From positions 1-59,239 of IMG/VR virus record IMGVR_UViG_3300033153_005246: 59,239 nucleotides of DNA. One strand, written 5' to 3'. Position numbers and translations under genes: made by a program. Below are positions 1,868-59,239 of this stretch, in pieces. The notes under the pieces are model-generated. The model saw nothing but the letters and a program-made list of their open reading frames with translations, was not told the origin of the DNA and did not search any database. This DNA is from a virus (lineage: Duplodnaviria; Caudoviricetes). Positions within the stretch are counted from its first letter, which is position 1. Every line of letters begins with the position of its first letter.

Positions 1868-1877
1868 GAGATTTATA

Positions 1878-2075
1878 GTGGAAGAAAATATAATTGACTG
1901 GATTTTAATAAGAAAAGATAATCAAAAATATGTTAGTTGGGGCAACGGTACAAAGCCAGAGGTTGGTGAACCAGATTTATTAGAATGGATCGAATGGAAC
2001 AAAGAATTGCCTGAAGATATTGATACAGTACAATATAAATATGATAAGAAAACTAACAGTTTAATAAAATTATAA
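1878..2075 (+). CDS. Small hypothetical protein, possible tail fibre assembly protein
   Basis: AGGAG RBS then GTG; 65 aa directly after the tail gene. Confidence 0.5.
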   Translation: MEENIIDWILIRKDNQKYVSWGNGTKPEVGEPDLLEWIEWNKELPEDIDTVQYKYDKKTNSLIKL

Positions 2076-2126
2076 GGAATGGGAGTATTTTGAAATTTTA
2101 ATAGATACTTGGATTAAGGAGAATAC

Positions 2127-2648
2127 ATGTACAAAAACGGAACAATTGTTTTAATTGGCAATCGCAGATGGGGTACTAAATTGGCAAATATCGTAACAGG
2201 ATTTATAGTTAAAGCTACTAAATCAAATTATATCCATATTAAAAGATATTTGAATGGGTATTGGTATGAATCTTCATATCCTACTGGTGCAGGGAAAACA
2301 ACAGAAACATTTATCACAAATGATTTGAATCTTGTTAGAGAACCAATTGAAGATCTAACAGATGAAGAAGTAGAAAAAATGATTGAATTTGGCGAGAAAG
2401 CTATCACAGATAAAATTAAATATAATCTTTTTAAGCTTATTGCTTTATATGTTATACTTCCTACCAGAAAGTTTTGGGATTTTATTGGATGGGTTCCATT
2501 TTCAAACAATAATATATTTGGAACAGTATGTTCTGTATTTGATGCAGAGATGGTAGCGTATTCTGGGCGTATTGAATTTGAAGGGCAGGATGTAGAAATG
2601 AGAACTCCGGCAGATTACGAAAAAACAGACATATATAGAGATATTTAA
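2127..2648 (+). CDS. Permuted papain-like (YiiX/YaeF-type NlpC/P60) protein
   Basis: N-terminal His (SNYIH), 'KYN', and a C-terminal 'VCS' Cys followed by 'TPAD', the permuted NlpC/P60 order. Confidence 0.55.
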   Translation: MYKNGTIVLIGNRRWGTKLANIVTGFIVKATKSNYIHIKRYLNGYWYESSYPTGAGKTTETFITNDLNLVREPIEDLTDEEVEKMIEFGEKAITDKIKYNLFKLIALYVILPTRKFWDFIGWVPFSNNNIFGTVCSVFDAEMVAYSGRIEFEGQDVEMRTPADYEKTDIYRDI

Positions 2649-2693
2649 GAAAATAAAATATAAGGGGACAACCCCCTTATTAAGGAGAGCATT

Positions 2694-3155
2694 ATGATAA
2701 GACAAGATGGTAAACATTTAAAAAATGTATCAAAACTCCCTTTCAAGGTATACGCTTGTGCTTTATTTGATATTATTTATTATGCTGTGATGCATGGAAA
2801 TTACCAATTTGATTATACTACATTTCTAGAAGATGTAGATGCATGGATAAACGCAGGAGTATTAGACAAAGAACTCACTATTTTAAGTTGGGATAGACTA
2901 TGCAGAGATGCAGGACTTCCATATAGATTAGTTATAGAAGGAGGCACACATAAACTTCCTGCAAGCAGGGTATTGCAGGAAGGTGAGCTTCAGATTCTGT
3001 ACTTATACAATCCTTCAACGAACCTCCACCATTTTGTTTGTGCAAATTTTAAAGATGACATAACATATGATTCACTGGGAGAAAGTGTTACAGGAAAAGC
3101 GTACAAAGATGGGCATGGTATTATAGCATCACGTAGAGTGTTTAGAAAGATATAA
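2694..3155 (+). CDS. Putative Cys peptidase (DUF261-like), candidate endolysin
   Basis: N-terminal Q...YAC, then 'HHFV' and 'YDSLG'; lies upstream of holin- and spanin-like genes. Confidence 0.45.
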   Translation: MIRQDGKHLKNVSKLPFKVYACALFDIIYYAVMHGNYQFDYTTFLEDVDAWINAGVLDKELTILSWDRLCRDAGLPYRLVIEGGTHKLPASRVLQEGELQILYLYNPSTNLHHFVCANFKDDITYDSLGESVTGKAYKDGHGIIASRRVFRKI

Positions 3156-7872: not shown

Positions 7873-8816
7873 TATTCTATATCTCCTTCTAAACTTTTAT
7901 TTATAAATTTCTCTACATTCCTGTTAATCAATATATTATCCTCCTTATCATATTTGTTTTTAATAATATATTTTTTAACATTTTTCTCAAATATGTCTGT
8001 AATTTCATACTCTTCATCCATATTGATCACAAAGCTTTCCATACGCTCATCTCGATCTTTTTCTACCTGAAGATGTTCTGTTGATATAACATTGTCTTCT
8101 ATGGGAAGATATAATGGTTCAAACTCTTTTGTCTTTGTGTCGAGCTTCCATACTCTAGGCTTATAATCAATTTGATTAGCAGAAATCCTCATAAGAGATC
8201 CGGTATTGATTAAAGTACATCCTTTGTAGGTATAGTGAAAGGGTTTATGGTGGTCTGCCGTTATGATAAAGGAATAATCCCCATAAAACTCATGAACAAT
8301 ATCTTTAGCTACTAACCCCCCAATAAGTGTGTTCTCCCTCTCGTCCACAAACCCATGGTACAGAACTATATGTGTATTCCCATCATTTTTATACTCATCT
8401 GCTAAATGTGCAATTTCTTCCCCATAATTGAATCCGTGAATCATCACATTGGAATCAGGGATCAAATAAGGCTTTCCAATCACATGTATAATATTCCCTG
8501 CTGTAATAGCAGTTTGTATTATAGATTCCCCAATATAATCAAGACTCTTGTTTTTGAGATCATGGTTTCCCAATATTGCAATTAGCTTATCAATATATTC
8601 AAGGATCAGATTTTGTGTTTTTACAGCATCGGAAACACTTTTTCCTACAGCCACATTTGTAATATCTCCTGCATCAACTCTAACTGCATTATATTTTTCT
8701 GTTAAATAATTAACATATTCTAATGCTTTGACTTGTGCTTGGTAAAAATCATCCGTTCTACAAATAGGTACTCTTGCTCCATCTAAGTGCATATCCCCTG
8801 ATGCTAGTAGTGTCAT
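7872..8816 (-). CDS. sbcD: SbcD/Mre11/gp47-like metallophosphoesterase nuclease
   Basis: GDMH, AGD, LGNHD, DHHKP and NTGSLMR motifs. Confidence 0.85.
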   Translation of the reverse strand: MTLLASGDMHLDGARVPICRTDDFYQAQVKALEYVNYLTEKYNAVRVDAGDITNVAVGKSVSDAVKTQNLILEYIDKLIAILGNHDLKNKSLDYIGESIIQTAITAGNIIHVIGKPYLIPDSNVMIHGFNYGEEIAHLADEYKNDGNTHIVLYHGFVDERENTLIGGLVAKDIVHEFYGDYSFIITADHHKPFHYTYKGCTLINTGSLMRISANQIDYKPRVWKLDTKTKEFEPLYLPIEDNVISTEHLQVEKDRDERMESFVINMDEEYEITDIFEKNVKKYIIKNKYDKEDNILINRNVEKFINKSLEGDIE

Positions 8817-9460
8817 CTGGCACCCCCAAATAATCTATCATTACGATATACAATAACCTGATTCTGTACACTTAATATCCTATTATCATAACCAGCTATC
8901 ATTACGCTGATATTATTTTCTTCGATCTGCTGTGTACTTAATATTTGATGATTCTTCATACAGCAAGGACAAACAAATACATACTTCCAATCCTTGAATG
9001 CTCTCATGACATCCATAGTTTTTACATGAGAATGTACTAACGTAATCCCCAAATGTTCTTTACCATATTCTTCTACATCTAATTCAAAATTAGATTTTCC
9101 AGAATCTGTTTCTGCATTAATATAATCTTCCCAAGTATATTTATAATAACTCAGATTTTCTACTTCCCATTGTTTCATCCATGTATTCATCCTACCCATA
9201 TTCATATTAGGATCTATGGAAGCATTAGCGGATTTACTTAGAAAAGTAAAGATACCCGATGTTCTAGCCGAATTACCATCCCCAATTGAAATATTGAAAA
9301 AATCATCCATCCTCAAATCATCTTTATTAATGGCATTTTTCATATGGTGAAAAGCCCCATAACTTTCAGTCATTTCCTTTGTAGGATTATTTGTATTAGA
9401 AAACAATCCAACCAATTCTTCGGCACAATTTCTTTTTAAAATAGAATTAACATAACTCAT
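8813..9460 (-). CDS. Possible SAM-dependent methyltransferase-like protein
   Basis: 'SIGDG..ARTS', 'SIDP', 'HSH' and 'CPCC' resemble a Rossmann MTase fold; weak call. Confidence 0.35.
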   Translation of the reverse strand: MSYVNSILKRNCAEELVGLFSNTNNPTKEMTESYGAFHHMKNAINKDDLRMDDFFNISIGDGNSARTSGIFTFLSKSANASIDPNMNMGRMNTWMKQWEVENLSYYKYTWEDYINAETDSGKSNFELDVEEYGKEHLGITLVHSHVKTMDVMRAFKDWKYVFVCPCCMKNHQILSTQQIEENNISVMIAGYDNRILSVQNQVIVYRNDRLFGGAR

Positions 9461-10690
9461 TTAGCAAACCTCCTTAAGATATTTCATACTCTGCCCACAA
9501 GTAGGACAATCTTGTCCATCAATACTAAGATAATCCTCTTTTATAGATTTGTCAAGCTCTTTCAACGTTTTTTCATAAAGATCTATATTAGATAACATTC
9601 TTTCTAAATCCTTAGCTTCCCCATCTAATTCTTCTACTTTGTCAAATAAAGAAATAATTTCTGCCACATTACCTTTACACTTATCAATATCTGTATAGGA
9701 TTGGAGGCTTTTCTCATACCCTTCTATTCGCTCCACACAATCAAGTAGACTATTGTACTCTTTAACAATTTCAGTTTTGGAATCAAACAAAGTCAATAAT
9801 GCATCTACAGTAGGCTCATGAATTGTTGTTTTTATAATAGTATCTAATTCTTTTTCCCATGCAATGATATTATTCTTAACTTCTGTTAAAGCATACCCCT
9901 GTGAATCTAGTTCTTCTATTGTACTATATAAGTCCAGAATCTCGTTAGTAAGATCCAAATGGGTTGTACTATCACTTATTGTTTTAAGTTCCGTAGCGAG
10001 CTTCCTGATAGTACTCAAATGGATTATCAGTTCTTGTTGTTCCTGCCTCAAAGTATTGCTTTTGGTTTCTACAACAAAAAGATCTTCTATATCTTTTTCC
10101 ATCTGTTCTATGAAATCAAACTTACCAATCTCCTCATTATATTTTTTAAGATTAATATCAGAAGCATCCTTGTGTTTTTTAATCTGCCTAACAATCTTAT
10201 TGATATTAGAAATGGATTCATCAATATTTTCAAGACCAGCCATTTTATTGAGAGTCTTTGCTTTAGTAGAATCATTATCATTTAATAGAAAATGGGTTTC
10301 AAATTGATTTTGAATATTTATTTCATTCATACTAAATATTTTAAGTACATCATCAGGCACACCCTGATTGAAATTTCTAATAGGATCACAGTCATTTATT
10401 TGATAAAAATTATCTGTACGAGTTCTTTCTCTTCTGATAACTGAATTATCAAATAAATGTATTTCTACCCAACAGGATTCTCCTTTTTTAATTTTACCTT
10501 TACTGTCTTTGATTTCATTGGAGATATAATTATGAGATTGATTGTTATTGATTACAAAATCTATACCATGTAAACATTTTGATTTGCCAGAATTTCCAGT
10601 TCCTATAATAGTATTTAGCCCATTTACAAAATCAAATTTTTGAAATTTATAGCCCCCATAATTATTTAAGATTACTGTTTTAATTTTCAT
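9461..10690 (-). CDS. sbcC: SbcC/Rad50/gp46-like ATPase, N-terminal half
   Basis: Walker A GTGNSGKS, Q-loop, long coiled coil ending in the zinc-hook CPTC. Confidence 0.8.
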   Translation of the reverse strand: MKIKTVILNNYGGYKFQKFDFVNGLNTIIGTGNSGKSKCLHGIDFVINNNQSHNYISNEIKDSKGKIKKGESCWVEIHLFDNSVIRRERTRTDNFYQINDCDPIRNFNQGVPDDVLKIFSMNEINIQNQFETHFLLNDNDSTKAKTLNKMAGLENIDESISNINKIVRQIKKHKDASDINLKKYNEEIGKFDFIEQMEKDIEDLFVVETKSNTLRQEQQELIIHLSTIRKLATELKTISDSTTHLDLTNEILDLYSTIEELDSQGYALTEVKNNIIAWEKELDTIIKTTIHEPTVDALLTLFDSKTEIVKEYNSLLDCVERIEGYEKSLQSYTDIDKCKGNVAEIISLFDKVEELDGEAKDLERMLSNIDLYEKTLKELDKSIKEDYLSIDGQDCPTCGQSMKYLKEVC

Positions 10691-18411: not shown

Positions 18412-18484
18412 ACTCATGAGTGGGAATCGAACCCACGAATAAATGATTTGCAATCATTTGCCTTAACCACTTGGCTACCATGAG
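18412..18484 (-). tRNA. tRNA-Cys(GCA), 3' CCA not encoded
   Basis: Acceptor CTCATGG/TCATGAG, D arm GCC..TGG..GGC, anticodon arm AATGA-TTGCAAA-TCATT, T arm GTGGG-TTCGATT-CCCAC, U73 discriminator. Confidence 0.92.
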
Positions 18485-26954: not shown

Positions 26955-27527
26955 TCAAACATCCTTATAATAAATCTGGGGATATACCATTGCAATTTTA
27001 GCTTCTAATCCTTCTATACCAGAATCATTGTGTAATGTGTAATCTGGGATAATCTGATCCATTTCCTGCTCAGATGAATGTTGGTCTGTTGAAACTAATC
27101 CTTCTCTTTTTATCTTAAGAATATGTCCTCCCATTTCTTTAAGAATTTTAAATTCGTTAAGAAAACGAACATCTGATATTACTACATCTGCTCCTTTCGG
27201 TAGGCTTTCATACCAGTATTGGAATCTTTTGCACCACAGATTGTTTCCAATGATTTCATTAAAAGTTTTATTGAGAGTAGGAAAGAATTCTCTCATAGTT
27301 TCTGTTCCAAATACTTGCTGTATTTCTCTTCCACTCATACCCCATCGTTCATCTACAACTTCTTTTTGATCACCATTTATTTGGCTGTCTGACATCAAGA
27401 ATGTATCTGCTACGAAGTTCTTTATAGGAGAAGCAAATTTGTACTTCACAAATCCATGCTGTCTAATTAGATAGTCTGCGACTACATCTTTTCCTGCAAA
27501 TTTTTTACCTGTTATTCCTATGATCAT
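26955..27527 (-). CDS. Deoxynucleoside monophosphate kinase
   Basis: GITGKKFAGKD, FASPIK, REIQQVFGTE, SDVRFLNE and HSSE motifs. Confidence 0.9.
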   Translation of the reverse strand: MIIGITGKKFAGKDVVADYLIRQHGFVKYKFASPIKNFVADTFLMSDSQINGDQKEVVDERWGMSGREIQQVFGTETMREFFPTLNKTFNEIIGNNLWCKRFQYWYESLPKGADVVISDVRFLNEFKILKEMGGHILKIKREGLVSTDQHSSEQEMDQIIPDYTLHNDSGIEGLEAKIAMVYPQIYYKDV

Positions 27528-28276
27528 ACTGTTTTATCCTCCTCATATCGAAACTTTTTAAAATATCTTTTCTCAGCATTTATTCGTACTTCTTTTGCTC
27601 TTTCAAAATCAGAGTAGTATCCCAAAGCAATATACTGGTTATACACTCTTATCTGTACTTGCCATTTTTTATTTCTTTTATGCCAAGAAACACCTCGTAA
27701 TCCAGAAGTGTTTGCTTTGGTATTTCCCTTATTCCATTTATTTTGAAAAGAGGAGGCTATTCTTAAATTGGTTTTTAAATTGTTTAATTTATCAGTGTCT
27801 TTATGATCTATTTCTAAATCTTCTGGTGCACCCATAATAAGTCTGTGTAAATAAACTGTTTTATTAGAATCTCTGTATCTGCTGATAACATAACCATTTT
27901 TACTTAAGTTCCAACAGAAACTTTTTACTAAATGGTAGTCTGTTTCTTCTATTTTTGTATATTCTTTTTTTAAAGTTCCTTGCTTATTATAGAAATAAAT
28001 ATATATGGTATTCCCTACTCTTTTAATTTTATTTCGCACAGTGCGGTTTAATTTAGCTTGTTCAGCCATGAAACACCCACAACTAGTTGATTTCCCAGAT
28101 AATAAACTATATCGTGAAATAGATTTCACATTCCCACAGATACATTTGCACATGTATTTCCATTTAGAAGGAGCATTTGGCTTTTTCTGTTTAGAATTGG
28201 AATCTGCCTCAATAATTTCCCATCTACCAAATTTCTCTCCTTGTAGTAAATATTTTGGATGTTTATACTGTCTCAT
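27524..28276 (-). CDS. HNH homing endonuclease with AP2 domain
   Basis: CxCxCG...SCGC N-terminus, LHRLIM..IDHKD..KLNN...NLR, C-terminal NTSG..GVSW AP2 domain. Confidence 0.85.
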   Translation of the reverse strand: MRQYKHPKYLLQGEKFGRWEIIEADSNSKQKKPNAPSKWKYMCKCICGNVKSISRYSLLSGKSTSCGCFMAEQAKLNRTVRNKIKRVGNTIYIYFYNKQGTLKKEYTKIEETDYHLVKSFCWNLSKNGYVISRYRDSNKTVYLHRLIMGAPEDLEIDHKDTDKLNNLKTNLRIASSFQNKWNKGNTKANTSGLRGVSWHKRNKKWQVQIRVYNQYIALGYYSDFERAKEVRINAEKRYFKKFRYEEDKTV

Positions 28277-29381
28277 CTTTCTTACTCCATTTAATCATAT
28301 ACTCAGGAGATTTTGCTTTAAATCCAATATTTTGATCAGTCATTGATCTCCATACAAACCCTTCTCTTTTTGTATTACCAAATACTGATTTACCATTAGC
28401 ATCGGATAACACTTCTTCTATAGTATTTGGTAATAAAATATTCCAAGCATAAACAGGAACTGTTTCAAATCCATATTCATCACTAAATCCTATCATTTCA
28501 TAATAATCTAAAGTTCTCCCAGTGGCACTATCACTTACTTTAAATACAAATAATCGTGGAGTTTTAAACTTATATATATTTTTCTGAACACCTTCTTTAC
28601 AAATTTCCCCATGAATTGCGTATTTAATTCCGGTATCCTTATAAGCTTTTCTGAGTATTTTTTCTATTTCATACTGTTTACTTATCTGATCCCAATTACT
28701 ACCATCACCATCAAATCTCATAGCATTGTGAGAATAGAGTCTATACTCAGGATTCTTTTTGTTTCCATAAAGCATAAAACAAGAACTTTGTCCTTCCATT
28801 TTTTCTGCTTTATAGTATAGTTCTTCTGGCTTATTTTCCTTAAGCCAATTAAATACTTTTTGAACATTTGTCTCATTACTTTTCTGTATGGTATCAGGAT
28901 ATGTATTTTTAGATTTTTTCTTACCAAGAATTATATTTCTGAATACTTTATATTTTAACAAGAAGTTGGTGAATTTCCCATACTTCTTTTTGCTTGTATT
29001 AACAGATATTTCTTCGGGAGCATATTTTCTAGCACCTAATTTATCTGCTATAACTGTACCCACTTTTAATTTATGTCCATTTTGCAGTAAACTAAGAGGG
29101 AGACACAATCCTTGGCTAAAGACACCTGCCATTAACATATTTCTTATTCTAAAACCATCATAAAGAGAAGAGTAACAACGTGCTCTCAGAAACTCCAATT
29201 CTGGTCTAGGTTTTAATACTACATCATATTCTACATATATAGTGTAATCTCCAATAGTGTAATCTCCTTTAGTTACGATTACTTTCCATCCATGATCTAT
29301 TTCCGCTAATTCAATTCTGTCTTTTCCCAAAATAGGCTCCAAGCCAGTAATAACTGATATGTATACAAGATCTCTACCCAT
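28263..29381 (-). CDS. RNA ligase (Rnl2/DRB0094-like)
   Basis: N-terminal 'DRIELA..W.V' domain; EKMEG, HGE, REG and FKAKS ligase motifs. Confidence 0.8.
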   Translation of the reverse strand: MGRDLVYISVITGLEPILGKDRIELAEIDHGWKVIVTKGDYTIGDYTIYVEYDVVLKPRPELEFLRARCYSSLYDGFRIRNMLMAGVFSQGLCLPLSLLQNGHKLKVGTVIADKLGARKYAPEEISVNTSKKKYGKFTNFLLKYKVFRNIILGKKKSKNTYPDTIQKSNETNVQKVFNWLKENKPEELYYKAEKMEGQSSCFMLYGNKKNPEYRLYSHNAMRFDGDGSNWDQISKQYEIEKILRKAYKDTGIKYAIHGEICKEGVQKNIYKFKTPRLFVFKVSDSATGRTLDYYEMIGFSDEYGFETVPVYAWNILLPNTIEEVLSDANGKSVFGNTKREGFVWRSMTDQNIGFKAKSPEYMIKWSKKDETV

Positions 29382-29395
29382 AATTTCTCCTCTAT

Positions 29396-30148
29396 TTAAT
29401 ATTCATTTCTACATACACTAGCAGAAAACTCTTCGTGATATCTTTTCTCAGCTAATTTTCTAGTTTCTACTGCTTTTGAAAAAGACGAGAAATATCCCAA
29501 ATGATACTGCTTTTTATTTAACACAATAAATGGCAAGCATTTATTGTTTCTACAATGCCATGTTACTCCGGTAGCACCAGAAGTATTATTTGATTGTATT
29601 TTATGATTCCTATTATTCTCTTTGCTATTACAAATCCTTAAATTTTCTTTTTTGTTATTTAATGGACTGCCATCTATATGATCTATAACTAGATTTCCAG
29701 AATAATCTAAAATAAATCTATGTATTCTTGTAATTTTTTTATTGATTGGAGCACAAACATAATCCCTATCTGTGGTGTGCCAACAATAATCTTTTACTTT
29801 AGAGTAATCTTCTTTATCTATAACTATCTTTTTTTGAGAATCGTTACTACTTACTATAAGTATTGAATCTTCTAATGTTATAATTTTATTTTTCTTTTTG
29901 TTGGCTTCTTTTGTCTTTTTTATTGCAAGACACCCACAACTCTTTACATGTCCTCTACATATGGTATTTTTAGACAAGGTAACAATATTCCCACAAACAC
30001 ATTCACATGTATATTTCCAACTTGATGGTGGGATCATTTTTCCATTTATAAACTTAGATTGTTTGTCAAGATTAATAACAGTTAAACAATTAAATACCAT
30101 TCCCGAAGATAGATATTTAGGATACTTGCTACAAGATACCTCTCTCAT
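29396..30148 (-). CDS. HNH homing endonuclease with AP2 domain
   Basis: Paralogue of 27524-28276; IHRFI..IDHIDG..LNNKKENLR and NNTSG..GVTW. Confidence 0.85.
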   Translation of the reverse strand: MREVSCSKYPKYLSSGMVFNCLTVINLDKQSKFINGKMIPPSSWKYTCECVCGNIVTLSKNTICRGHVKSCGCLAIKKTKEANKKKNKIITLEDSILIVSSNDSQKKIVIDKEDYSKVKDYCWHTTDRDYVCAPINKKITRIHRFILDYSGNLVIDHIDGSPLNNKKENLRICNSKENNRNHKIQSNNTSGATGVTWHCRNNKCLPFIVLNKKQYHLGYFSSFSKAVETRKLAEKRYHEEFSASVCRNEY

Positions 30149-35026: not shown

Positions 35027-35995
35027 TCATACAACATCCTTTATAATATTATTTCTTAATATATTTACCAAATAATTATTAGCCCATTTAAAATTTGGCT
35101 TCTTTGGTAATACCGTTGTTTCTAAAGCTTTTTCACATAGTTTTGCATATGTTTCATGCATTTCCAATAATTCATCTAAATACACATCCCCATTTCTAAT
35201 TCTCATTACATTTATTTTGTGTTCTCCTGTAAATGGGAATTCTAGTTTACTTGTCTCCAATAGCATTAGACCTTCTGCCATAATTCTTATGCTATGCATA
35301 CCAAATTTTAAGTCGTAACCATGAGACAAGAAGGTATCTGTTTTTACCCTCCATCCATAGTTATCTCTTTCGCTAACTAATTTTTCATAATTAACATGAA
35401 GAGGAAGTCCTATATGGAATGATTCTGCATTACCATCTCTGTTCTTATAGAAATCTAAATTTTTATTCATCCAATCAGCATCATCCTGTGTCAGCCCATA
35501 TTTTCTATCAGTCAATTGATCTTTAGTAAATCTATTCTCTACTAATTTAATACCATTTGTTAAAGAAGCATATCTTTCTTTCTTGGTGATTAGTTTCTTT
35601 TTTTGAGAATATGCATAACTTGTAAAAGAAAAATATATTTTCTGAGAAATCAGTTTTTTATAGTTATCTATCAAAGGTTGAAATTCTGGTTCACAAATAA
35701 GTACATTCTCACCTGTGGCAAATAAAGTTTCTACAATATTTGGATTATTTCCCAAAAGCAAATGCATAAATTTAGGAAGAGAATATGATACATCATCAAT
35801 ATCATCTTTTGTATTTCTTCTATCTTCCGACGAAGATTTAGTAGAATTGTTAATCATATCCACTTTATTCAATCCCAGTAAATCCTCATCTGATGGCAGG
35901 AATACAGATAGAAAATCCTCATCTGATTCTGGAGTACTCAATCCGTACAACTGAGAGCCAACTCTTATTCTATATATTATTTTTCTTTCTTTCAT
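35027..35995 (-). CDS. Nucleotidyltransferase (Pol-beta superfamily, YcgL-like)
   Basis: VGSQLYGLSTPESDED, NNPNIVE and YDLKFGMHSIR; start taken at MKERK (ATGA overlap with cca). Confidence 0.8.
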   Translation of the reverse strand: MKERKIIYRIRVGSQLYGLSTPESDEDFLSVFLPSDEDLLGLNKVDMINNSTKSSSEDRRNTKDDIDDVSYSLPKFMHLLLGNNPNIVETLFATGENVLICEPEFQPLIDNYKKLISQKIYFSFTSYAYSQKKKLITKKERYASLTNGIKLVENRFTKDQLTDRKYGLTQDDADWMNKNLDFYKNRDGNAESFHIGLPLHVNYEKLVSERDNYGWRVKTDTFLSHGYDLKFGMHSIRIMAEGLMLLETSKLEFPFTGEHKINVMRIRNGDVYLDELLEMHETYAKLCEKALETTVLPKKPNFKWANNYLVNILRNNIIKDVV

Positions 35996-37326
35996 ATCAT
36001 CTCCTTTGCCACAGTAATAGCTTGTTCTCTGGTTGATACCACCCCATCTAATTGCAGGTTCATGATACAAGTTAAAATAGTGGTAAATCTAGGACTAGGC
36101 TCCAATCCTAATTCAATCAAATCTTTTCCACCAATAATGCATTTTGGTAATACAACTTCATTTTTCAATTCTTCTTTCATTTCATTAATTCTATTAAGCC
36201 AATCAAATTTATTTATTCCATCTTCAGGATCAGCAGGAGTAGATGCCATACTATCTGCATGTGAAACTGTGACTAGTTTATCAAAGTAGGTTTCTGCCAT
36301 AAGCCTTCTTAAAGTAGATCTTTTCATTTTGGAAGCATGTTTGATTCTCATATGATCTTTTACAATAGCTACTGCCGTATCTCTATGGGAAGAAGACGCT
36401 TTAAATCTATTCATAACTTCTTCTGCCATTTCTGCACCTATACTGGCATGTCCAAGATGTTTAATAATCCCCTCTACAATAGTACTGCATTTGGCTTTCC
36501 CAATATCATGCAATAGAGTCCCCCATAATACATCTAAATCATCTGTGTGTTTTCTGGCTTCATTTAAAGCAAGCATGGTGTGTTTCCACGTAGAACCTTC
36601 TGTGTGCCACTTAGGGGATTGGTCAACAAGAATTAGCTCATTTACTTCCTCTAAAATAATAGATAATATACCACAAGTCTTTAACAATCTAAACCCTATA
36701 CTTGGATTTCTAGCTAATAAAATCTTATCCAATTCCATTTTAACTCTTTCAAAAGAAATCTTTACAATACTAGAAGATAATTTAGTAACAGCTTGTCCTG
36801 CTGAAACTTCCAAATCAAAATCCAAAGAAACAGTAAATCTAATTGCTCTCATCATTCTAAGAGCATCTTCTTTAATCCTTTTCTCAGGATCACCGACAAA
36901 TCTAATAATGCTATTTTGAATATCGTCTACCCCACCAAAGAAATCAAACAACTTATTTTCAATAGGATCAAAAAACATAGCATTCATTGTGAAATCTCTT
37001 CTACTGGCATCTTCCTTGAGAGAAGATGTATATTTCACACTATCAGGTCTTCTTCCATCAGAAGTATCTGAATCAGTTCGTAATGTTGCTGCTTCAAACT
37101 GAAGATTATACACAATAACTATAATTACACCAAATGCTTTTCCCACAGGTAATGTATGTCCAAACAATTCTTCGACCTCATCTGGAGAAGCTGATGTGGC
37201 AACATCATAGTCTTTAGGAGTCCTTCCCATAACCTGATCTCTAACACATCCTCCTGCAAATACTGCAATATGTCCCGCATCTTGTAATTTTTTCACAATA
37301 TTTGTGGCTATTTCTTTTTCGTTCAT
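35992..37326 (-). CDS. cca: CCA-adding tRNA nucleotidyltransferase with HD domain
   Basis: AGGCVRD, KDYDVAT, RRDFTMNA, EDALRMMRAIRF, SFER and LLHDIGK motifs. Confidence 0.9.
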   Translation of the reverse strand: MNEKEIATNIVKKLQDAGHIAVFAGGCVRDQVMGRTPKDYDVATSASPDEVEELFGHTLPVGKAFGVIIVIVYNLQFEAATLRTDSDTSDGRRPDSVKYTSSLKEDASRRDFTMNAMFFDPIENKLFDFFGGVDDIQNSIIRFVGDPEKRIKEDALRMMRAIRFTVSLDFDLEVSAGQAVTKLSSSIVKISFERVKMELDKILLARNPSIGFRLLKTCGILSIILEEVNELILVDQSPKWHTEGSTWKHTMLALNEARKHTDDLDVLWGTLLHDIGKAKCSTIVEGIIKHLGHASIGAEMAEEVMNRFKASSSHRDTAVAIVKDHMRIKHASKMKRSTLRRLMAETYFDKLVTVSHADSMASTPADPEDGINKFDWLNRINEMKEELKNEVVLPKCIIGGKDLIELGLEPSPRFTTILTCIMNLQLDGVVSTREQAITVAKEMI

Positions 37327-37335
37327 TATTATCCC

Positions 37336-37881
37336 CTATTCTATAATATCATACCGATATATCAACCATTCAAGAGTATCTAATATTCTGTAGTATAACA
37401 CAGGAAGGTCTTTATTTTCTTCATTATCCCATATTAAATCACTCATTATATAATGCGTTTCCATTACATATTTCTTTATAAATTCTACAGGAACACCATC
37501 AGCCTCAAGAAATAGCACATTATGTAAACGATCTGCTAATTTAATTAAAAGGGCATCTTCACTCATGTTATTCATTCTATCAGTGAGGTACTTTCTCTTA
37601 CTAACTTTTTTTGGTTTGTTAGAAGTTAACTCTTCGACAAGTCCTCCAATCCTATCTCCAAATAATAAGTAAATATCTCTATTACTCACATTATCACAAT
37701 CTTCAGGAACATCATGGAGTAATGCAGCAGCGATTAATTCTGGATCTTTTGTAATATCCTCAATCATCCTAGCTACATACTTAGGATGTGAAAAATAAGG
37801 AAGTCCAATGAACTTCCTTTCCTGTCCTCTGTGGGATGCTTCTGCAAAGTTATAAGCTTTAATTACAATTCTTTTTATCAT
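37336..37881 (-). CDS. HD-domain small alarmone hydrolase (SpoT/Mesh1-like)
   Basis: H.GQ.RK...PYFSHP, AALLHDVPED and IKLADRLHN motifs. Confidence 0.85.
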   Translation of the reverse strand: MIKRIVIKAYNFAEASHRGQERKFIGLPYFSHPKYVARMIEDITKDPELIAAALLHDVPEDCDNVSNRDIYLLFGDRIGGLVEELTSNKPKKVSKRKYLTDRMNNMSEDALLIKLADRLHNVLFLEADGVPVEFIKKYVMETHYIMSDLIWDNEENKDLPVLYYRILDTLEWLIYRYDIIE

Positions 37882-37909: not shown

Positions 37910-37938
37910 ACTATAGTATGTTTTTTAATTTTTGTCAA
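37910..37938 (-). promoter_or_regulatory. sigma70-type promoter
   Basis: TTGACA-17-TATAGT upstream of the HD-cca-NTase genes. Confidence 0.7.
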
Positions 37939-40688
37939 GCACTTTTTTCATAACCGTATCTTTCCAATAATTCTTCTTCTTCCACATGATCATACCAATT
38001 CCCATTATCATAATATTCTACATCAGCTTTCATCGTATGTTTTACCCATCTATATTTCTTCATGAGATATTCCGTCATGTAATAAATAACAGTATCTCGC
38101 AAACCTTTTCCTATCCATTCAGAAAGATCTTCTGGTGTGTCAAAATACATAGCGTCATGGATTTGAGCACAGATTTTTGTTTTTAAATCATTTTCATCAA
38201 TATACTTCTGTATTTTAGTTTGTGCCTGAAGAACGACATGAAAGGCAGGACCTTGTATTACATACGAATTAGTCTGATTTCTGCTCATAACAGTTGTGGA
38301 ATAAAATCCTGTTTTTAATTTGGTTCTTGTATTTTGTACATAATTTTTCCAATTATCTTTTCTCCATTGTCCAAACTCTCCATAATTATCATTCCAGTAC
38401 CAGTCACAAACTTCCTTTATATGTTCTGTGAATTCTTTTTCATTCGTAATTCCCATCTCTTTAAAATATTGTTTATGAAAATCTTTCATATGTTTATTGT
38501 ATACTGTAGGACCAATGCTCAAGTATATATCACCAAACTGTAAGCTAAAGCTCAGGCCATTCTTAGCAATATATCTCAATTCTTTAAACATTCCTTTTTC
38601 ATTATCATGTTTTTCATCAAATATTCCCATTTCTTTTTTAATATTAAGCATATCTTTTGCTACTTGCTCTAAATCACCCTTAAATAGTTTTTCTGCTAAA
38701 CCAAGATGCATGTCCAACCCTTCTTCCAATTGTTTTAGCATTGTCTTATCTTTATGAATAGAGCACCCAATTCCTACTTCTAATGAGCTGGCGTCCACTC
38801 CCACGATCCTGTTTCCATCCTTTACTTTTAAAGTAGATCTGACCATTTCTGTTGCAAATAAATCATGCTGGCTTTGATTCTGCCAACATGGATTCTGACT
38901 GGAACTTCTATAACTTTTAGGGATATTCAAAGACCATTGTGGATAAATGTGTCCATCTACTGTTTCTTTTTTAATCCCTTTTAAATCTTGAGTCAATTTA
39001 ATTAATTTTGCTATCTCCAAATACATTTTAACAAATTCAGATAGATGAGCAACATCCTTCAATTCTTTTGCTTCAGTCGAGTATTGTTTTTTATCTGTCA
39101 TTTTAGTTTTAGGTAATTTTAAAATGCTAAATAGAAAATCTGCAAGTTGTTTCCCAGATTTATAATTAAACTCTGTATCTCTAACCTCATGCCATTTTTT
39201 AACTTCATCACAGTTTTTAATATTGTATTGAAGTTTAGTTATTTTTTCATCAAGAAGCATTTCGTTCTGGATTAAACGATTTTCATCTATGTTAAAACCA
39301 TTTTCCATCATTCTACAAAAAGACAACATTCCATTATGAAATAAATCATATCCTTTTCTTAAATGTGGATCATCAATAATCTGTGGTCTTTGCCATTCAT
39401 ATAACTTATAAGTGAAGTGTGAATCGAGTGCGCAATAAAGGCACATTTCTTTAAGATCCATTTTATCCATAGTATTAAAACCATTAGTTCCATATAATTC
39501 TTTTTCTTCTTTAGTTGACTTAATAAACTGATCAGCAGCAGAGTCATATCCAAGTATGCCCAGTCTCATATAAGTCTGTATTTTCAAACCAGTGATGTTC
39601 GATCTATTATCAAGTATATGTGTAGCCAACATGCTGTCCCATACAAAATTCTCCGTTCTGTATCCAAACATAACGTGTCCTGCCTGATATTCATAAGCCA
39701 TATTATGACTTATTTTCCCTACTCTGGTAGAACGAAGAAGTCTTTTGAGATTATTCATAAATGGTTTGTTATCATAAAATATAGGAAAACCATAAGAAAC
39801 AATCCCATTACTGAAAGAAACACAATATATTGTATGTCCTTTTTTATGTAGTTTAATACCGGAAGTTTCATAATCAAAGGAGACAAGTGTTTCTTTTTGC
39901 ATACATTTAAGAATATGTGTAGCCTCTTCAACATCCATAATAGCACAAGCTTCTGCTTCATAAGTATCTTTTTGAAATTCTTTTGAAGAGTTTATTCCAT
40001 TAAGATATTTCATAAAGAACTTTTCTTTTAATACAAAATCATCATTATTATATAGTTGTTTATTCTGCCATAATGGAGTATTCTTATCAGGTGTTCTCCA
40101 TTTCCCCCACTTTTTTAATTTCTCCATTCTTATTTTAAGTGGAAGCAGTACAAAATCAGTATCATATATGGGAAGTATTAACTTACCCAATTCCTGATCT
40201 GGTATATGAGCACCATAAAACTTTTCTGTGGGTTTAAGACTCATTCTTCCTCTACATCTATCTCCTATAAGAATTTCTAAAGGAAGTTCTCCTAATGTAA
40301 CTATTTTTTTAGGATCAAGTTGTTTTATTACTCTATGCAATTTATGTTTACAACTGGACATCATTTGGGTTGTCGGAGCTTTTGGATCATCTGAAGCACA
40401 ACGTATAGATGGGACATACCAACAATCTCTTTCCAAATCTATATTGATTTTTCGTAAAGCATGTCTTAAATATTTTCCTTGAAGATCAGACAATAATTTT
40501 CCACTCTTATCATCCCTCCTACTAACCATACCACCAACAATCAAGATTTTTCTGTTTCCTTCCCCAATAAATCCCATCTTGGGACTTTGGCAATGTCTAT
40601 ATTGTTGACAAGATTCACAGGATGAAATTTTTTTAATATTTTTCTTCTTCTTAATTGCCTTCTTATCAAGTTGAAAGAATCCTTCCAT
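37935..40688 (-). CDS. polA: Family A DNA polymerase with N-terminal family-4 UDG-like domain and 3'-5' exonuclease
   Basis: CxxC..C Fe-S-type UDG N-terminus; exonuclease FDYETSG, HN and YCALDS; polymerase RSSS.NP, DASSLE, R...K and QIHD. Confidence 0.9.
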   Translation of the reverse strand: MEGFFQLDKKAIKKKKNIKKISSCESCQQYRHCQSPKMGFIGEGNRKILIVGGMVSRRDDKSGKLLSDLQGKYLRHALRKINIDLERDCWYVPSIRCASDDPKAPTTQMMSSCKHKLHRVIKQLDPKKIVTLGELPLEILIGDRCRGRMSLKPTEKFYGAHIPDQELGKLILPIYDTDFVLLPLKIRMEKLKKWGKWRTPDKNTPLWQNKQLYNNDDFVLKEKFFMKYLNGINSSKEFQKDTYEAEACAIMDVEEATHILKCMQKETLVSFDYETSGIKLHKKGHTIYCVSFSNGIVSYGFPIFYDNKPFMNNLKRLLRSTRVGKISHNMAYEYQAGHVMFGYRTENFVWDSMLATHILDNRSNITGLKIQTYMRLGILGYDSAADQFIKSTKEEKELYGTNGFNTMDKMDLKEMCLYCALDSHFTYKLYEWQRPQIIDDPHLRKGYDLFHNGMLSFCRMMENGFNIDENRLIQNEMLLDEKITKLQYNIKNCDEVKKWHEVRDTEFNYKSGKQLADFLFSILKLPKTKMTDKKQYSTEAKELKDVAHLSEFVKMYLEIAKLIKLTQDLKGIKKETVDGHIYPQWSLNIPKSYRSSSQNPCWQNQSQHDLFATEMVRSTLKVKDGNRIVGVDASSLEVGIGCSIHKDKTMLKQLEEGLDMHLGLAEKLFKGDLEQVAKDMLNIKKEMGIFDEKHDNEKGMFKELRYIAKNGLSFSLQFGDIYLSIGPTVYNKHMKDFHKQYFKEMGITNEKEFTEHIKEVCDWYWNDNYGEFGQWRKDNWKNYVQNTRTKLKTGFYSTTVMSRNQTNSYVIQGPAFHVVLQAQTKIQKYIDENDLKTKICAQIHDAMYFDTPEDLSEWIGKGLRDTVIYYMTEYLMKKYRWVKHTMKADVEYYDNGNWYDHVEEEELLERYGYEKSA

Positions 40689-41257: not shown

Positions 41258-42244
41258 TTAATCTATTTTTATTCCAGAAATTTCATAAAAAATCTCAGCA
41301 TCGAAATTCGGTAAGTTTTTAACAGTTTCTTTGTCTTTAACGCTGGCATTGTCCCATGCTCTTTCAAATGCTGTTTTATAATCTAGTGTTCTTAAAAATC
41401 CTCCACAAGTTTCAATCTCATTTTTGTACTCTTCTTTCTCTTCTTCTGTTGCAGTATCATGACTGACCCATTGTGTAAGATCAAAGTATAAGAATGAGGG
41501 AAAAGAAATACTTCCCATTTCAAGTTCTGTATCTTTATTAAACAGCCTTGCGATAGGGTTTTCAGTGTTAAAGAATCCAGAGTTCCAATTTCCAGAGTTC
41601 CAATTTCCAGAGTTCCAATTTCCAGAGTTCCAATTTCCAGAGTTTCTGTTTCCAGAGTTTCTGTATCCAGAGTTGCTGTATCCAGAGTTGCTGTTTCCAG
41701 AGTTGCTGTCTCCAGAGTTGCTGTATCCAGAGTTCCTGTATCCAGAGTTGCTGTCTCCAGAGTTGCTGTTTCCAGAGTTGCTGTTTCCAGAGTTGCTGTT
41801 TCCAGAGTTGCTGTTTCCAGAGTTGCTGTTTCCAGAGTTGCTGTATCCAGAGTTGCTGTATCCAGAGTTGCTGTTTCCAGAGTTGCTGTCTCCAGAGTTG
41901 CTGTTTCCAGAGTTTCTGTCTCCAGAGTTTCTGTTTCCAGAGTTTCCAGAGCCTGTATTTATTAGACCCAACAATTCTGCCCACTCTACTTCTCTTACAA
42001 TTTTTATTTTATTTGTAGCCTGTTTATCCTTATCTGTACCAACGATATCTCCAATTAATTCTACTTCTGCAACTTTATTATCAGTATCAAAACTATAATA
42101 ATTGAAACAATCCACTGCCTTTTTACACGCATGAAACCCAACTTCACACAAAACAGGTTTTTCTTTCATTTCATAAGTTTCTCCTACTTCATATTGAAAT
42201 CCTCTACATGCCCAATCATTGTTAAAAACTTTATATGCTTTCAT
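41258..42244 (-). CDS. Pentapeptide-repeat (xxNSG) phage protein
   Basis: N-terminal 'CRGFQYEVG...GFHAC' domain, central repeat, C-terminal 'LPNFDAEIFYEISGI'. Confidence 0.85.
   Translation of the reverse strand: MKAYKVFNNDWACRGFQYEVGETYEMKEKPVLCEVGFHACKKAVDCFNYYSFDTDNKVAEVELIGDIVGTDKDKQATNKIKIVREVEWAELLGLINTGSGNSGNRNSGDRNSGNSNSGDSNSGNSNSGYSNSGYSNSGNSNSGNSNSGNSNSGNSNSGNSNSGDSNSGYRNSGYSNSGDSNSGNSNSGYSNSGYRNSGNRNSGNWNSGNWNSGNWNSGNWNSGFFNTENPIARLFNKDTELEMGSISFPSFLYFDLTQWVSHDTATEEEKEEYKNEIETCGGFLRTLDYKTAFERAWDNASVKDKETVKNLPNFDAEIFYEISGIKID
41576..41944. repeat. 15-bp coding tandem repeat
   Basis: 25 invariant TCCAGAGTT cores at exact 15-bp spacing with 6 variable bases between them. Confidence 0.95.
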
Positions 42245-55760: not shown

Positions 55761-56532
55761 CCATTCCCTCATTCTCAATCCTATATTTTGCTACATCTAC
55801 CCATTTCCAATTAAAGAATTCCGACTTTTCTTTTTCACAATATCCATTATCAATTCCTATGAAGTTTCTATTTAAGTTTTTACAAGCTACTCCTGTAGAT
55901 CCTGATCCCATCGTACAATCCAAAACTGTATCTCTTTCATTGGTAAAAGTCTTAACAAAGAATTCCATCAATGCTACAGGCTTTTGAGTTGGATGATAAT
56001 TACTGGTTAAAATATCCCTTTGTATTTTCAGTACCTGAGTGGGGTATCTCCATCCAGTATCTTCATATTCCTTAACAGCTTTCTCATTACTGTCTGTTAA
56101 TACACCCATCTTTCCGTTCTTGACTTTATTACTTCGTTTAGCACCAGTATACTTAATCATTTGTGGATTATACGTTGGTTGTTTATTATAAAAGATGCAA
56201 CATTCTTCTACCGTTTTTCCAGCTCTTCTTTTAACTTGAGCAATATTTGTTAGTCGCTCTTTCTCCCAATAATAGCAGTATTTAAATATTTTATAATTAG
56301 AGGAAATAAGGGCAGAAGTAAATGGTTGCTGTGCTGTTAAAACAATGGCTCCATTGTGTTTATTTAATTTGTTGAATCGTTCCCACATTGGTTCAAAAGG
56401 GATAATCTTGTCCCATGCTAAATTTGTAACAGAATATGGTAGATCTGTGATAATTGCATCTACCTTAATTCCTTCTTCAATTAATTCATCCATGATTTCC
56501 AGTGTATTTCCGTGTATTAATCTGTTATTCAT
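55753..56532 (-). CDS. Beta-class N4/N6 DNA methyltransferase
   Basis: TDLPY, HPTQKP and LDCTMGSGSTG motifs. Confidence 0.9.
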   Translation of the reverse strand: MNNRLIHGNTLEIMDELIEEGIKVDAIITDLPYSVTNLAWDKIIPFEPMWERFNKLNKHNGAIVLTAQQPFTSALISSNYKIFKYCYYWEKERLTNIAQVKRRAGKTVEECCIFYNKQPTYNPQMIKYTGAKRSNKVKNGKMGVLTDSNEKAVKEYEDTGWRYPTQVLKIQRDILTSNYHPTQKPVALMEFFVKTFTNERDTVLDCTMGSGSTGVACKNLNRNFIGIDNGYCEKEKSEFFNWKWVDVAKYRIENEGMDG

Positions 56533-57301
56533 TTACACCTCTGCTATTGTCAAAAGAATATTCACCACGATACTTTTCTTCTCCTTCTTTACGAGCTTTT
56601 ATAGCATCTTCTTTGTTTGTAAATCGCCCTAAAAATCTTTGTTTATGTCCTATAGTTATACCAACTTCCCATTTATTATAAGTAGATGACCAAAATACAC
56701 CAGCTATTCCTGATGAATTATTTGTGTTTTTTTTCCTATTCATACTATTTTGTAAATGAGTGCAAATTCTTATATTATTTCTCCTATTATTCAGTCCATT
56801 GCCATCTTTATGGTCTACTACATACTCATCTATAGGAGAAAGTAGTAGTCTATGCATTAGGATATTCTTATGCTCATAATTATAAGTACTTCTAAGGGAT
56901 GCACAAGCATAAAAAGTATTACCATATTCTGTCTTAAGTACTCTCCAACAATAATTTTTAATTATTGGATAATCATTTTTATTAATAATGGTATATGTAT
57001 TTTCTTTATTAAAGAAAAATACCTTAATATAATCACCACATTCTTCTATTCTATTAGTTTTTTTACTTCTTTTAGATACAGTTTCCTTTCTGATACACCC
57101 ACAGGATTTTGGATTATTGCTAATTAATCCATGTTTGCTTGCTAAAGTAGTATTTCCACAATCACACTTACATATATATTTCCACACACTAGGAAGTATT
57201 CTTTTGCCATTTTTAATTTTACTACTCTCATCAACTTCTATTACAGTAAGTCTATTAAATTTCATTCCTTTCTTTAAATATTTAGGGTATTTCTTTTTCA
57301 T
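56525..57301 (-). CDS. HNH homing endonuclease with AP2 domain
   Basis: Third paralogue: KYPKYL...CKCDCG...SCGC, MHRLL..VDHKDGNGLNNRRNNIR, NNSSG..GVFW. Confidence 0.85.
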   Translation of the reverse strand: MKKKYPKYLKKGMKFNRLTVIEVDESSKIKNGKRILPSVWKYICKCDCGNTTLASKHGLISNNPKSCGCIRKETVSKRSKKTNRIEECGDYIKVFFFNKENTYTIINKNDYPIIKNYCWRVLKTEYGNTFYACASLRSTYNYEHKNILMHRLLLSPIDEYVVDHKDGNGLNNRRNNIRICTHLQNSMNRKKNTNNSSGIAGVFWSSTYNKWEVGITIGHKQRFLGRFTNKEDAIKARKEGEEKYRGEYSFDNSRGVNE

Positions 57302-58977
57302 TTCTTCTCCTTATACATCTTTATCAATTCTTTATACATGTTAGAAACTTGCCCTTTCCCATCAAATTCACCATCTATAACAGCATCCGAAGTAGCTTGT
57401 TTTTCTTGTATTATCTCTAATACTTTTTCATCCACTGTATTTCTGCCTACTAAATGATATACTTTAGTAATCCCTATCTTATTCATCCTATTGAGTCTTC
57501 CTATGGCTTGAATCAATGCCCCAGAGGTAAAAGGATCTTGGTATAGTACCATAGTGGTTGAAATCAGATGGAGTCCATCTAATCCTTCCTTTCCGGCTAT
57601 GAGATTTAAAGCAAAGATATTTATCTTAGGGTCTTCAATAAATTTGTCAATTAAATTCAATCTTTCATCCATAGGAATAGAACCGTCTATCTTTAAAGCC
57701 CTATCTCCATAGTGTTCCATAACTATACCCATTAAAGCCTTATTGTGAATGAATATAACAATTTTATCAGTATTATCTAATAAATCATCTGTAAATGATA
57801 AACAAGAAGAAGCCTTATTTTCGTAGCAACATTTCATTAATGCTTGCATTTTTTGCAAGCCTGTAGCAGTATTGTCTTCATCTGTTTTAGCATGTTCAGA
57901 GAACTCTTCCTCTATTTTTATATACTCATCATAATTATCTAAATCCACAGGGACAATACTTTGAACCACAGGAGGCAAATCTGGCATAACTTCTTCTGGT
58001 TTAAAACGTATCAACAAATTATTTTTCAATAAAGTATGTAATTCAGCAGCATTACTAAGTCCATCAAATGTCCTTATTTTTCTACCTTTCCCAAGAAACT
58101 TCCATTGAGGATCACAAAATCTATTTAAAAAACTATATCTATTTGGAAAGACTTTTGGTTTCAATATATTCGCCATATTGAATATTTCCTTAGTTTTATT
58201 GTTAATGAACGTAGCAGAAAGAGCTAGAAAGTAAGGGACTCCTTCAGATAAGTATTTTATACTATGATAGGTTTTAGAATTTTCATTAGCGTATTTCTGA
58301 GCCTCATCGGTAAGTATCATTTCAAATTTATTTGACCTAAACTCTACCAATTTCTGAGAAGGTGTTGGCACTTTCTTTTTTCCCACAAAATCTATCTGTC
58401 TGCTAAATTTCTCATAATTAATTATAAAAATATCGTATGCTCCTTTATAATCAATGAGTTCATTTGTATTTTTTATAATTTTTATACGATCATCTTTATT
58501 AACCCATTTGAAATATTCACGTTTTAGATTGTGGGTTGTGGAAGAAGTAGTCACCATAAGTACAGGGAACTTTTCTTTCCAATCTATTACAGCCATTGCT
58601 ATTAATGATTTACCACTGCCTACCGGAAGTCCTACTCCGGCTCTAAATTTAAAATACTTAATGAGTTTCATAGTTTTCTTCTGAAATGGTCGCATTACCT
58701 TTTCGTATTCTTCTGGGATGGCTATTTGATTCACTCTTCTCCAGTTAATATCCTGTGTTCCCTTCCATTTATTATACACATCAGGATGCAGGTCAAAGTT
58801 AAGTTTATGTAGCATCTCCACATATTCATCATCCCATACTATCTCCCACTCTGATGATGCTCCAATAAACTTCCGATCTTGTGCCGGAATAGTTTTAATC
58901 TTTTCTAAAATCTTTTTGAAATCGTTTCCTTTGAACTTCAAAAGGATTCTGTTTTCATTGAGTCTCGCTTTTTTCAG
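57298..58977 (-). CDS. SNF2-family SF2 helicase/translocase
   Basis: MRPFQ, GSGKS, INYE, DEAQ, LSAT, EGLD and QAIGRLNR motifs; start placed at a CTG 6 nt behind AAGGAG (the ORF-track GTG at 59028 lies inside the repeat). Confidence 0.85.
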   Translation of the reverse strand: MKKARLNENRILLKFKGNDFKKILEKIKTIPAQDRKFIGASSEWEIVWDDEYVEMLHKLNFDLHPDVYNKWKGTQDINWRRVNQIAIPEEYEKVMRPFQKKTMKLIKYFKFRAGVGLPVGSGKSLIAMAVIDWKEKFPVLMVTTSSTTHNLKREYFKWVNKDDRIKIIKNTNELIDYKGAYDIFIINYEKFSRQIDFVGKKKVPTPSQKLVEFRSNKFEMILTDEAQKYANENSKTYHSIKYLSEGVPYFLALSATFINNKTKEIFNMANILKPKVFPNRYSFLNRFCDPQWKFLGKGRKIRTFDGLSNAAELHTLLKNNLLIRFKPEEVMPDLPPVVQSIVPVDLDNYDEYIKIEEEFSEHAKTDEDNTATGLQKMQALMKCCYENKASSCLSFTDDLLDNTDKIVIFIHNKALMGIVMEHYGDRALKIDGSIPMDERLNLIDKFIEDPKINIFALNLIAGKEGLDGLHLISTTMVLYQDPFTSGALIQAIGRLNRMNKIGITKVYHLVGRNTVDEKVLEIIQEKQATSDAVIDGEFDGKGQVSNMYKELIKMYKEKK

Positions 58978-58992
58978 TGTTTTCTCCTTTCT

Positions 58993-59160
58993 TTCCAATA
59001 ACTGCCCCTTTTTAAGCAATAGGTACACTACCAGCTTTTGATACTAAACACGTAAGTCCTCCAATAACTGCCCCTTTTTAAGCAATAGGTACACATACCT
59101 TACCAAGTAGATCTTATTTTATGCCTCCAATAACTGCCCCTTTTTAAGCAATAGGTACAC
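58993..59160. CRISPR. CRISPR mini-array: 3 x 36-bp repeats, 2 x 30-bp spacers
   Basis: CTCCAATAACTGCCCCTTTTTAAGCAATAGGTACAC at 59059-59094 and 59125-59160, and a 1-mismatch copy at 58993-59028; unique 30-bp spacers at 59029-59058 and 59095-59124. Confidence 0.85.
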
Positions 59161-59217
59161 AGTGACAATATAACTCTTTTCAGTGTAGCTATTTAGGATA
59201 ATTATTAGTGAGGAAAA

Positions 59218-59239
59218 ATGAATAATCATAATCAAAAAT
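59218..59239 (+). CDS. Possible start of a gene running off the window (MNNHNQK...)
   Basis: GAGG RBS-like sequence before an ATG; only 7 codons are visible. Confidence 0.3.

Follow-up and report, generated by a model that had tools for sequence, protein, structure and literature searches.

Do three nearly identical direct repeats at the end of a large phage contig form a CRISPR array, or do they belong to the control region of the replication genes beside them? The repeats lie on a linear IMG/VR virus record with a GC content of 32% that is 35% complete according to CheckV. The whole stretch of 59,239 nt was analysed and is called the window below. An earlier note, made from the letters alone, had interpreted the locus as a phage-borne CRISPR mini-array that is transcribed from the - strand and either borrows a host effector or has its effector encoded by the + strand open reading frame (ORF) beginning at 59218. 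That the element is phage-borne was confirmed by its place on a virus record, and overall this interpretation was partly supported. In our judgement the chances are about even that the element is a two-spacer CRISPR-type mini-array of a large and unfamiliar phage.

Repeats and spacers of the element have a CRISPR-like anatomy

Direct reading of the sequence, a repeat finder and slicing by script all gave three copies of the 36-nt element CTCCAATAACTGCCCCTTTTTAAGCAATAGGTACAC, with start-to-start spacings of 66 + 66 nt (Table 1). The coordinates, strings and period described earlier, including spacers of exactly 30 nt, were all reproduced. The sole mismatch among the repeats was located at 58993, at the left end of the left copy, as had been claimed; the base preceding this copy (58992) differs too. 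When up to three mismatches were allowed, the 36-mer gave three forward and no reverse matches in the whole 59239-base record, and a control with the reversed pattern gave none.

The earlier note had also stated that no further repeat exists on either side. To the left this stood, and nothing beyond chance was found there; to the right it holds for only the 79 nt that follow the last repeat before the contig ends at 59239. In the leftward scan the only similarity to the repeat above background was 17/36 positions at 58860, within the SNF2 coding region, where the 99th percentile of the null distribution was 16 and its maximum 21. This match, below the null maximum, was read as chance, and decayed extra repeats in the 5' region of SNF2 were rejected.

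Global alignment of spacer 1 with spacer 2 resulted in a score of -6; 2000 shuffles averaged -4.5, and 74% of them scored equally well or better. The spacers are thus no more alike than shuffled sequences, which argues against an origin of the array by duplication and divergence of a 66-nt unit. In a column-by-column comparison of the three units, 35 of 66 columns were identical and formed a single contiguous, sharply bounded block, while all remaining columns differed. The same script, run on approximately 1.07 Mb of fetched loci, returned 10 further rows from 9 other loci. In eight of these ten rows, 76-86% of the columns were identical, with periods divisible by three, and since the identity was spread over the whole period these rows represent ordinary tandem repeats. 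A partial exception to the tandem pattern was seen in L042 and L043, which have a shorter block (27/45 columns).

The array is non-coding, except for possible first codons of SNF2. Identical 36-nt repeats that alternate with unrelated spacers of equal length set the element apart from ordinary tandem repeats and uphold the earlier view of a CRISPR-type geometry; for several types of class 2 array, 36 + 30 nt is usual. The CRISPR-like anatomy of the array is real and unusual. With two spacers, the element is at the lower limit of what can be called an array.

Table 1 Features at the right end of the window, in order of position
Feature	Position	Strand	Remarks
SNF2-family helicase gene	57298-58977	-	First gene of the leftward block; likely start codon CTG at 58977-58975
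Ribosome-binding site of SNF2	58984-58989	-	AAGGAG; 3 nt from the end of repeat 1
Repeat 1	58993-59028	-	35/36 identical; T for C at 58993; distal (terminal) copy if read on the - strand
Spacer 1	59029-59058	-	30 nt
Repeat 2	59059-59094	-	36 nt, 36/36 identical
Spacer 2	59095-59124	-	30 nt
Repeat 3	59125-59160	-	36 nt, 36/36 identical; adjoins the right flank
Right flank	59161-59217	-	57 nt; candidate leader under a - strand reading; holds a TATATT box 6 nt from repeat 3
Truncated ORF	59218-59239	+	First 7 codons, cut by the contig end; preceded by GAGG

The array is located at a strand switch beside replication genes

Nearly all ORFs between approximately 2990 and 58977 are encoded on the - strand, and + strand ORFs are located at 2-3155 and from 59218. 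The array occupies the strand switch at the head of a leftward block of replication and nucleotide-metabolism genes, upstream of the SNF2 helicase gene, and its right flank is at the same time the region upstream of the + strand ORF at 59218. Leftward from the array, the block encodes the SNF2 helicase, an HNH endonuclease, an N6/N4 methylase, a DnaB-like helicase (less than 5 kb from the array), an NAD-dependent ligase and an M23 peptidase. The same block encodes a C5 methylase, a PIF1-like helicase, a family A polymerase (PolA), a CCA/poly(A) polymerase, an RNA ligase, a RecA-like protein and ribonucleotide reductase, as well as an SLT transglycosylase, HD proteins, RlaP, NT5C, a dNMP kinase, a clamp-loader-like ATPase and two more HNH proteins. 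A match to ThyX was weak and stayed under the Pfam cut-off. One tRNA-Cys gene was found at 18412-18484. Identity to proteins of cultured phages was low, reaching at best less than 28% for SNF2 and less than 25% for PolA.

Some features of the record were observed beside the locus itself. The family A DNA polymerase (37935-40688, - strand) carries an N-terminal domain of the UDG superfamily (residues 42-155) before its 3'-5' exonuclease domain. Three HNH_3 ORFs of approximately 250 aa (56525-57301, 29396-30148 and 27524-28276, all on the - strand) are scattered through the replication block and are probably homing endonucleases. RNA-repair-type genes at 28263-29381, 35027-36070, 35992-37326 and 37336-37881 form a set of an RNA ligase with a PHA02142 OB domain, RlaP, a CCA/poly(A) polymerase with an HD domain and an HD_4 protein; together with the tRNA-Cys gene, this set suggests countermeasures to tRNA-cleaving host defences. 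The N-terminus of an AAA_15-type ATPase of 409 aa (9461-10690, - strand) matches the PADLOC models LmuB, GajA, AriA and PtuA, and this protein may have a defence-like or anti-defence role in the phage. No PADLOC match was obtained for the 215-aa ORF downstream of it (8813-9460). At 41576-41944 a 15-bp unit is repeated 24.6 times with 94% match, in frame, so that it encodes a five-residue repeat. It lies within the ORF 41258-42244 (- strand), which matches phrog_14105, a family of unknown function.

A search of the IMG/VR viral contigs with the single SNF2 protein gave no match, and a profile search of the same contigs kept 80 loci, the best of which were L005 (40% identity) and L009 (37%). Closer homologues, with 72%, 62% and 62% identity, were found in a protein database on contigs from Logan or ENA; the contigs encoding P0002, P0003 and P0004 measure 2.2, 9.6 and 70.7 kb. 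Neither L005 nor L009 carries an array or repeats upstream of SNF2. In the nearest IMG/VR relative, L005, small co-directional ORFs lie upstream of the helicase gene.

Repeat 1 adjoins the ribosome-binding site of SNF2

The SNF2 homologues P0005 and P0006 (33-35% identity) begin with Met-Lys-Lys-Ala, and this start aligned with Leu-Lys-Lys-Ala of the window frame, in which Leu is encoded by CTG. The motif AAGGAG precedes this CTG at the distance usual for this phage, in which GGAG, GAGG or AGGA was found upstream of 25 of 34 ATG ORFs, compared with 12.7% of random windows. A TTG within repeat 1 (58998-58996) is in frame with SNF2 as well. Judged from these alignments and motifs, SNF2 appears to start at the CTG behind the canonical AAGGAG. 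With this start, 3 nt separate the end of repeat 1 from the ribosome-binding site of the gene that opens the leftward block, a proximity that the earlier note had overlooked and that keeps a regulatory or origin function of the repeats alive. No terminator-like site was detected between the array and SNF2. If transcribed on the - strand, the array would be read into the helicase message.

Strand, folding and promoter of the putative array

On the - strand the repeat can form a hairpin of 7 bp with G-U pairs (-5.3 kcal/mol), and on the + strand it folds worse. The hairpin proposed earlier does fold on the - strand, but it is no better than chance, since an equally good fold was reached by 99 of 200 shuffles (z 0.11). 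A similar split applied to the -10-like box TATATT: it is present at the proposed place, 6 nt upstream of the array on the - strand, but a sigma-70 scan of 58700-59239 found no promoter-like site on either strand. The proposed - strand orientation itself gained ground, as it fits both the co-orientation with SNF2 and the position of the degenerate repeat end. In CRISPR arrays the leader-distal repeat is usually the one that decays. Here, the degenerate end of repeat 1 faces away from the right flank, which is consistent with a - strand reading in which the right flank would serve as leader.

Cas genes, related repeats and targets were searched for

Scans of window ORFs with Pfam (37 ORFs of at least 150 aa), PHROGs (10 ORFs) and PADLOC (9 ORFs) detected no Cas family, in accordance with the earlier statement that no cas gene is in view. 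The + strand ORF at the left end (2-1867) was considered as a distant effector and rejected; it had no family match, and by our own reading its composition is like that of a tail fibre. A search for an anti-repeat, as a test for a tracrRNA, gave as best reverse-strand match in the 59-kb window 12 nt within an ORF (E 0.076).

The earlier note did not recognise the repeat family, and the searches gave it no name: at the stringencies used, there was no match in Rfam or in the viral, genome or metagenome collections. With Rfam, searched up to E 10, only four weak and unrelated matches were obtained (best E 0.18). The repeat 34-mer and the left 18-mer had no match each in the IMG/VR viral contigs; the right 18-mer matched one IMG/VR contig, L004, in a lone chance match without an array. 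The 22-mer core of the repeat was absent from genome_contigs (one genome for each of 185,579 species) and from metagenome_contigs (JGI/ENA). When two left 12-mers at a distance of 50-58 nt were searched in genome_contigs, one match appeared on a scaffold of Limosilactobacillus reuteri; it lies in a coding region without an array and was discarded. The 36-mer, with up to three mismatches, was found in none of 401 sampled genomes of one phylum that uses Shine-Dalgarno (SD) sites, that of Limosilactobacillus reuteri. The sole reason for choosing this phylum was that the phage uses strong SD sites. The contig scans for the repeat depend on exact words of 12-34 nt and could overlook a host repeat that differs at several positions; records of the phage's own genome may also be excluded from them. 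Since the repeat was found in no prokaryote genome searched, the idea that the array borrows a host effector was left without a host to point to. The repeat may resemble those of class 2 arrays of several subtypes, in Bacteroidota as well as in other phyla. The strong SD usage of the phage argues against a Bacteroidota host, and for this reason no subtype is claimed for the array.

The spacer searches proposed earlier likewise came back empty, with no protospacer in cultured phages, plasmids, IMG/VR or the window. Among cultured phages (query 58993-59239) and plasmids (query the array) there was no match of spacer length, the best matches being fragments of flank or repeat with E of approximately 0.07-10. 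The central 20-mers of both spacers had no match in the IMG/VR viral contigs, and within the window itself the best matches were 14/15 nt (spacer 1) and 11/11 nt. This absence weighs little, because the collections contain no close relative of the phage.

The truncated ORF at the contig end

The last 27 nt of the contig had no match among the IMG/VR viral contigs. The last 23 nt (59217-59239) were found identically in two sequences of metagenome_contigs, L086 (5129-5151) and L087 (9492-9514), where the 23-mer forms the start of an ORF that matches the Pfam family TK (E 1.2e-13). Both contigs have 24% GC and stem from an unrelated organism, and their further similarity to the window is limited to one weak match of clamp-loader type and a short, methylase-like one. 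The identity may reflect chance or a shared gene start, as an AT-rich 23-mer can recur by chance in so large a collection, and it is not used as evidence here. No TK was found elsewhere in the window, and a thymidine kinase would suit the nucleotide-metabolism genes of the phage. The match lends no support to the earlier suggestion that the ORF at 59218 encodes a Cas effector. In L087 the TK-like ORF (9493-9741) stops after 82 aa when translated with table 11, compared with the 176 positions of the Pfam TK model; another genetic code, a frameshift or a split gene are possible reasons.

It is decidedly improbable, in our view, that the array forms the edge of a complete phage-encoded CRISPR-Cas locus with an unrecorded repeat family and an effector gene that starts at or soon after 59218, in the missing part of this phage of approximately 170 kb.

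Alternative explanations for the repeats

Several results count against a CRISPR array. In the searches described above, no cas gene, anti-repeat, known repeat or protospacer was found, the hairpin was not significant and no sigma-70 promoter was detected. Moreover, the divergent junction beside replication genes is a place where an operator or an origin would also sit, and the two nearest IMG/VR relatives are without an array upstream of SNF2. The repeats might instead be protein-binding DNA sites in a divergent control region, either iterons of an origin or operators of a phage regulator, an explanation that we regard as possible though on the unlikely side. Recognition by its cognate protein would then preserve the identity of the 36-bp element, with the 30-bp stretches as mere linkers. 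Iterons of plasmid and phage origins are non-coding direct repeats with a regular period beside replication genes, and the element is alike in consisting of regular direct repeats in a non-coding stretch, here between the SNF2 start and the divergent ORF. Its place exactly at the strand switch, directly upstream of SNF2 and near the genes for the DnaB-like helicase, NAD ligase and PolA, speaks for such sites, as do the short distance from repeat 1 to the ribosome-binding site of the first gene and the failure to find a cas gene, a homologous repeat or a protospacer in our searches. The period of 66 nt also equals 3 x 22 nt, and 22 nt is the usual period of iterons. However, iterons and operators are approximately 17-22 bp long, and 36 bp of perfect identity, about twice the usual repeat length, far exceeds this. 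An identity of 35-36/36 beside long, unrelated linkers of exactly equal length is atypical of binding-site arrays. Furthermore, no replication initiator or repressor family was identified in the ORFs scanned, neither alongside the repeats nor elsewhere, the right flank is not notably AT-rich by eye, and repeats are absent from this place in L005 and L009.

Improbable, but compatible with part of the data, is a function at the level of RNA or transcription, with the repeats acting as tandem phage-specific promoters or as a repeated 5'-UTR module of the SNF2 operon. On the - strand each copy contains a GGGG run 6 nt before a TTG. Repeats 3 and 2 thereby provide two short upstream frames, and the TTG of repeat 1 is in the frame of SNF2; GGGG-type runs also precede the ATG of several phage ORFs. 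A length of 36 nt would correspond roughly to a full promoter, and no terminator-like site was detected between the array and SNF2. On the other hand, the stronger AAGGAG before the homologue-aligned CTG argues for a translation start downstream of the repeat. The 36-mer occurs nowhere else in the 59 kb, unlike a phage promoter consensus, and neither a sigma-70-like site nor a significant fold was detected. An assembly artefact, i.e. a mis-joined or collapsed repeat, was considered because the array lies less than 250 nt from the contig end and repeats often break assemblies. Yet the spacers differ from unit to unit, and the array is bounded by unique sequence at either end, with a coherent ribosome-binding site and gene start on the left, which makes an artefact very improbable.

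Comparison with known phage-borne arrays

CRISPR mini-arrays carried by viruses have been described (PMC6858448). As summarised in PMC11656645, viral mini-arrays have one or two spacers and repeats identical to those of the host, and their spacers mostly match related viruses. The element resembles the mini-arrays of these two reports, as outlined there, in that it is carried by a virus and has two spacers, identical repeats and no adjacent cas gene in view. It differs from them in that their repeats are shared with the host and their targets are related viruses, whereas here the repeat and the spacer cores match no record searched. Arrays of huge phages, in the account of PMC7162821, are compact; adaptation genes are lacking in almost all cases and recognisable interference genes in many. 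Some of these arrays have repeats like those of the host, the median number of repeats is six, and many adjoin an effector gene, e.g. that of Cas-phi. The large phage, the compact array and the lack of adaptation genes in view are in line with this account (PMC7162821). Unlike those arrays, the element has three repeats, and its neighbours are a replication-type SNF2 helicase gene and an ORF cut after 7 codons.

A further parallel is offered by viral Cracr arrays with two or three spacers, for which crRNA-like RNAs were outlined that reprogram host Cas proteins and silence promoters of host cas or toxin genes (bioRxiv 10.1101/2024.10.29.618823). According to the same outline, Cracrs were found through similarity to host CreA or CreR repeats, in types V-A and I (bioRxiv 10.1101/2024.10.29.618823). 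The element is like them a two-spacer phage array with no cas genes found in the window; it differs in that no host repeat was found for it in our searches. The element could belong to the mini-arrays, the huge-phage arrays or the Cracrs, and we assign it to none of these groups and make no subtype claim.

Possible function and implications

If the repeats are a CRISPR-type mini-array, transcription on the - strand would start from the 57-nt right flank, run leftward across all three repeats and both spacers, from repeat 3 to repeat 1, and extend into the helicase message of SNF2. Each repeat-spacer unit would be excised from the transcript and taken up by a Cas effector encoded outside the 59 kb in view. 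As the viral record is just 35% complete, the effector could lie off the contig; it might come from the host or from the missing two thirds or so of the phage genome. The guide RNAs would then direct the effector against a host locus or a competing phage, or they may tie the effector up as decoys. As the repeat matches none of the sequenced hosts searched, such an array would hint at a host CRISPR system that has escaped sampling or at an effector encoded by the phage.

Should the repeats be an origin or an operator instead, they would serve as a warning that a 36 + 30 geometry alone does not make a CRISPR array. A locus encoded entirely by the phage would be a new phage-borne class 2 system. 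If the element is a working mini-array, it would mean that a lineage of large phages without cultured relatives uses RNA guides against competitors or against host immunity.
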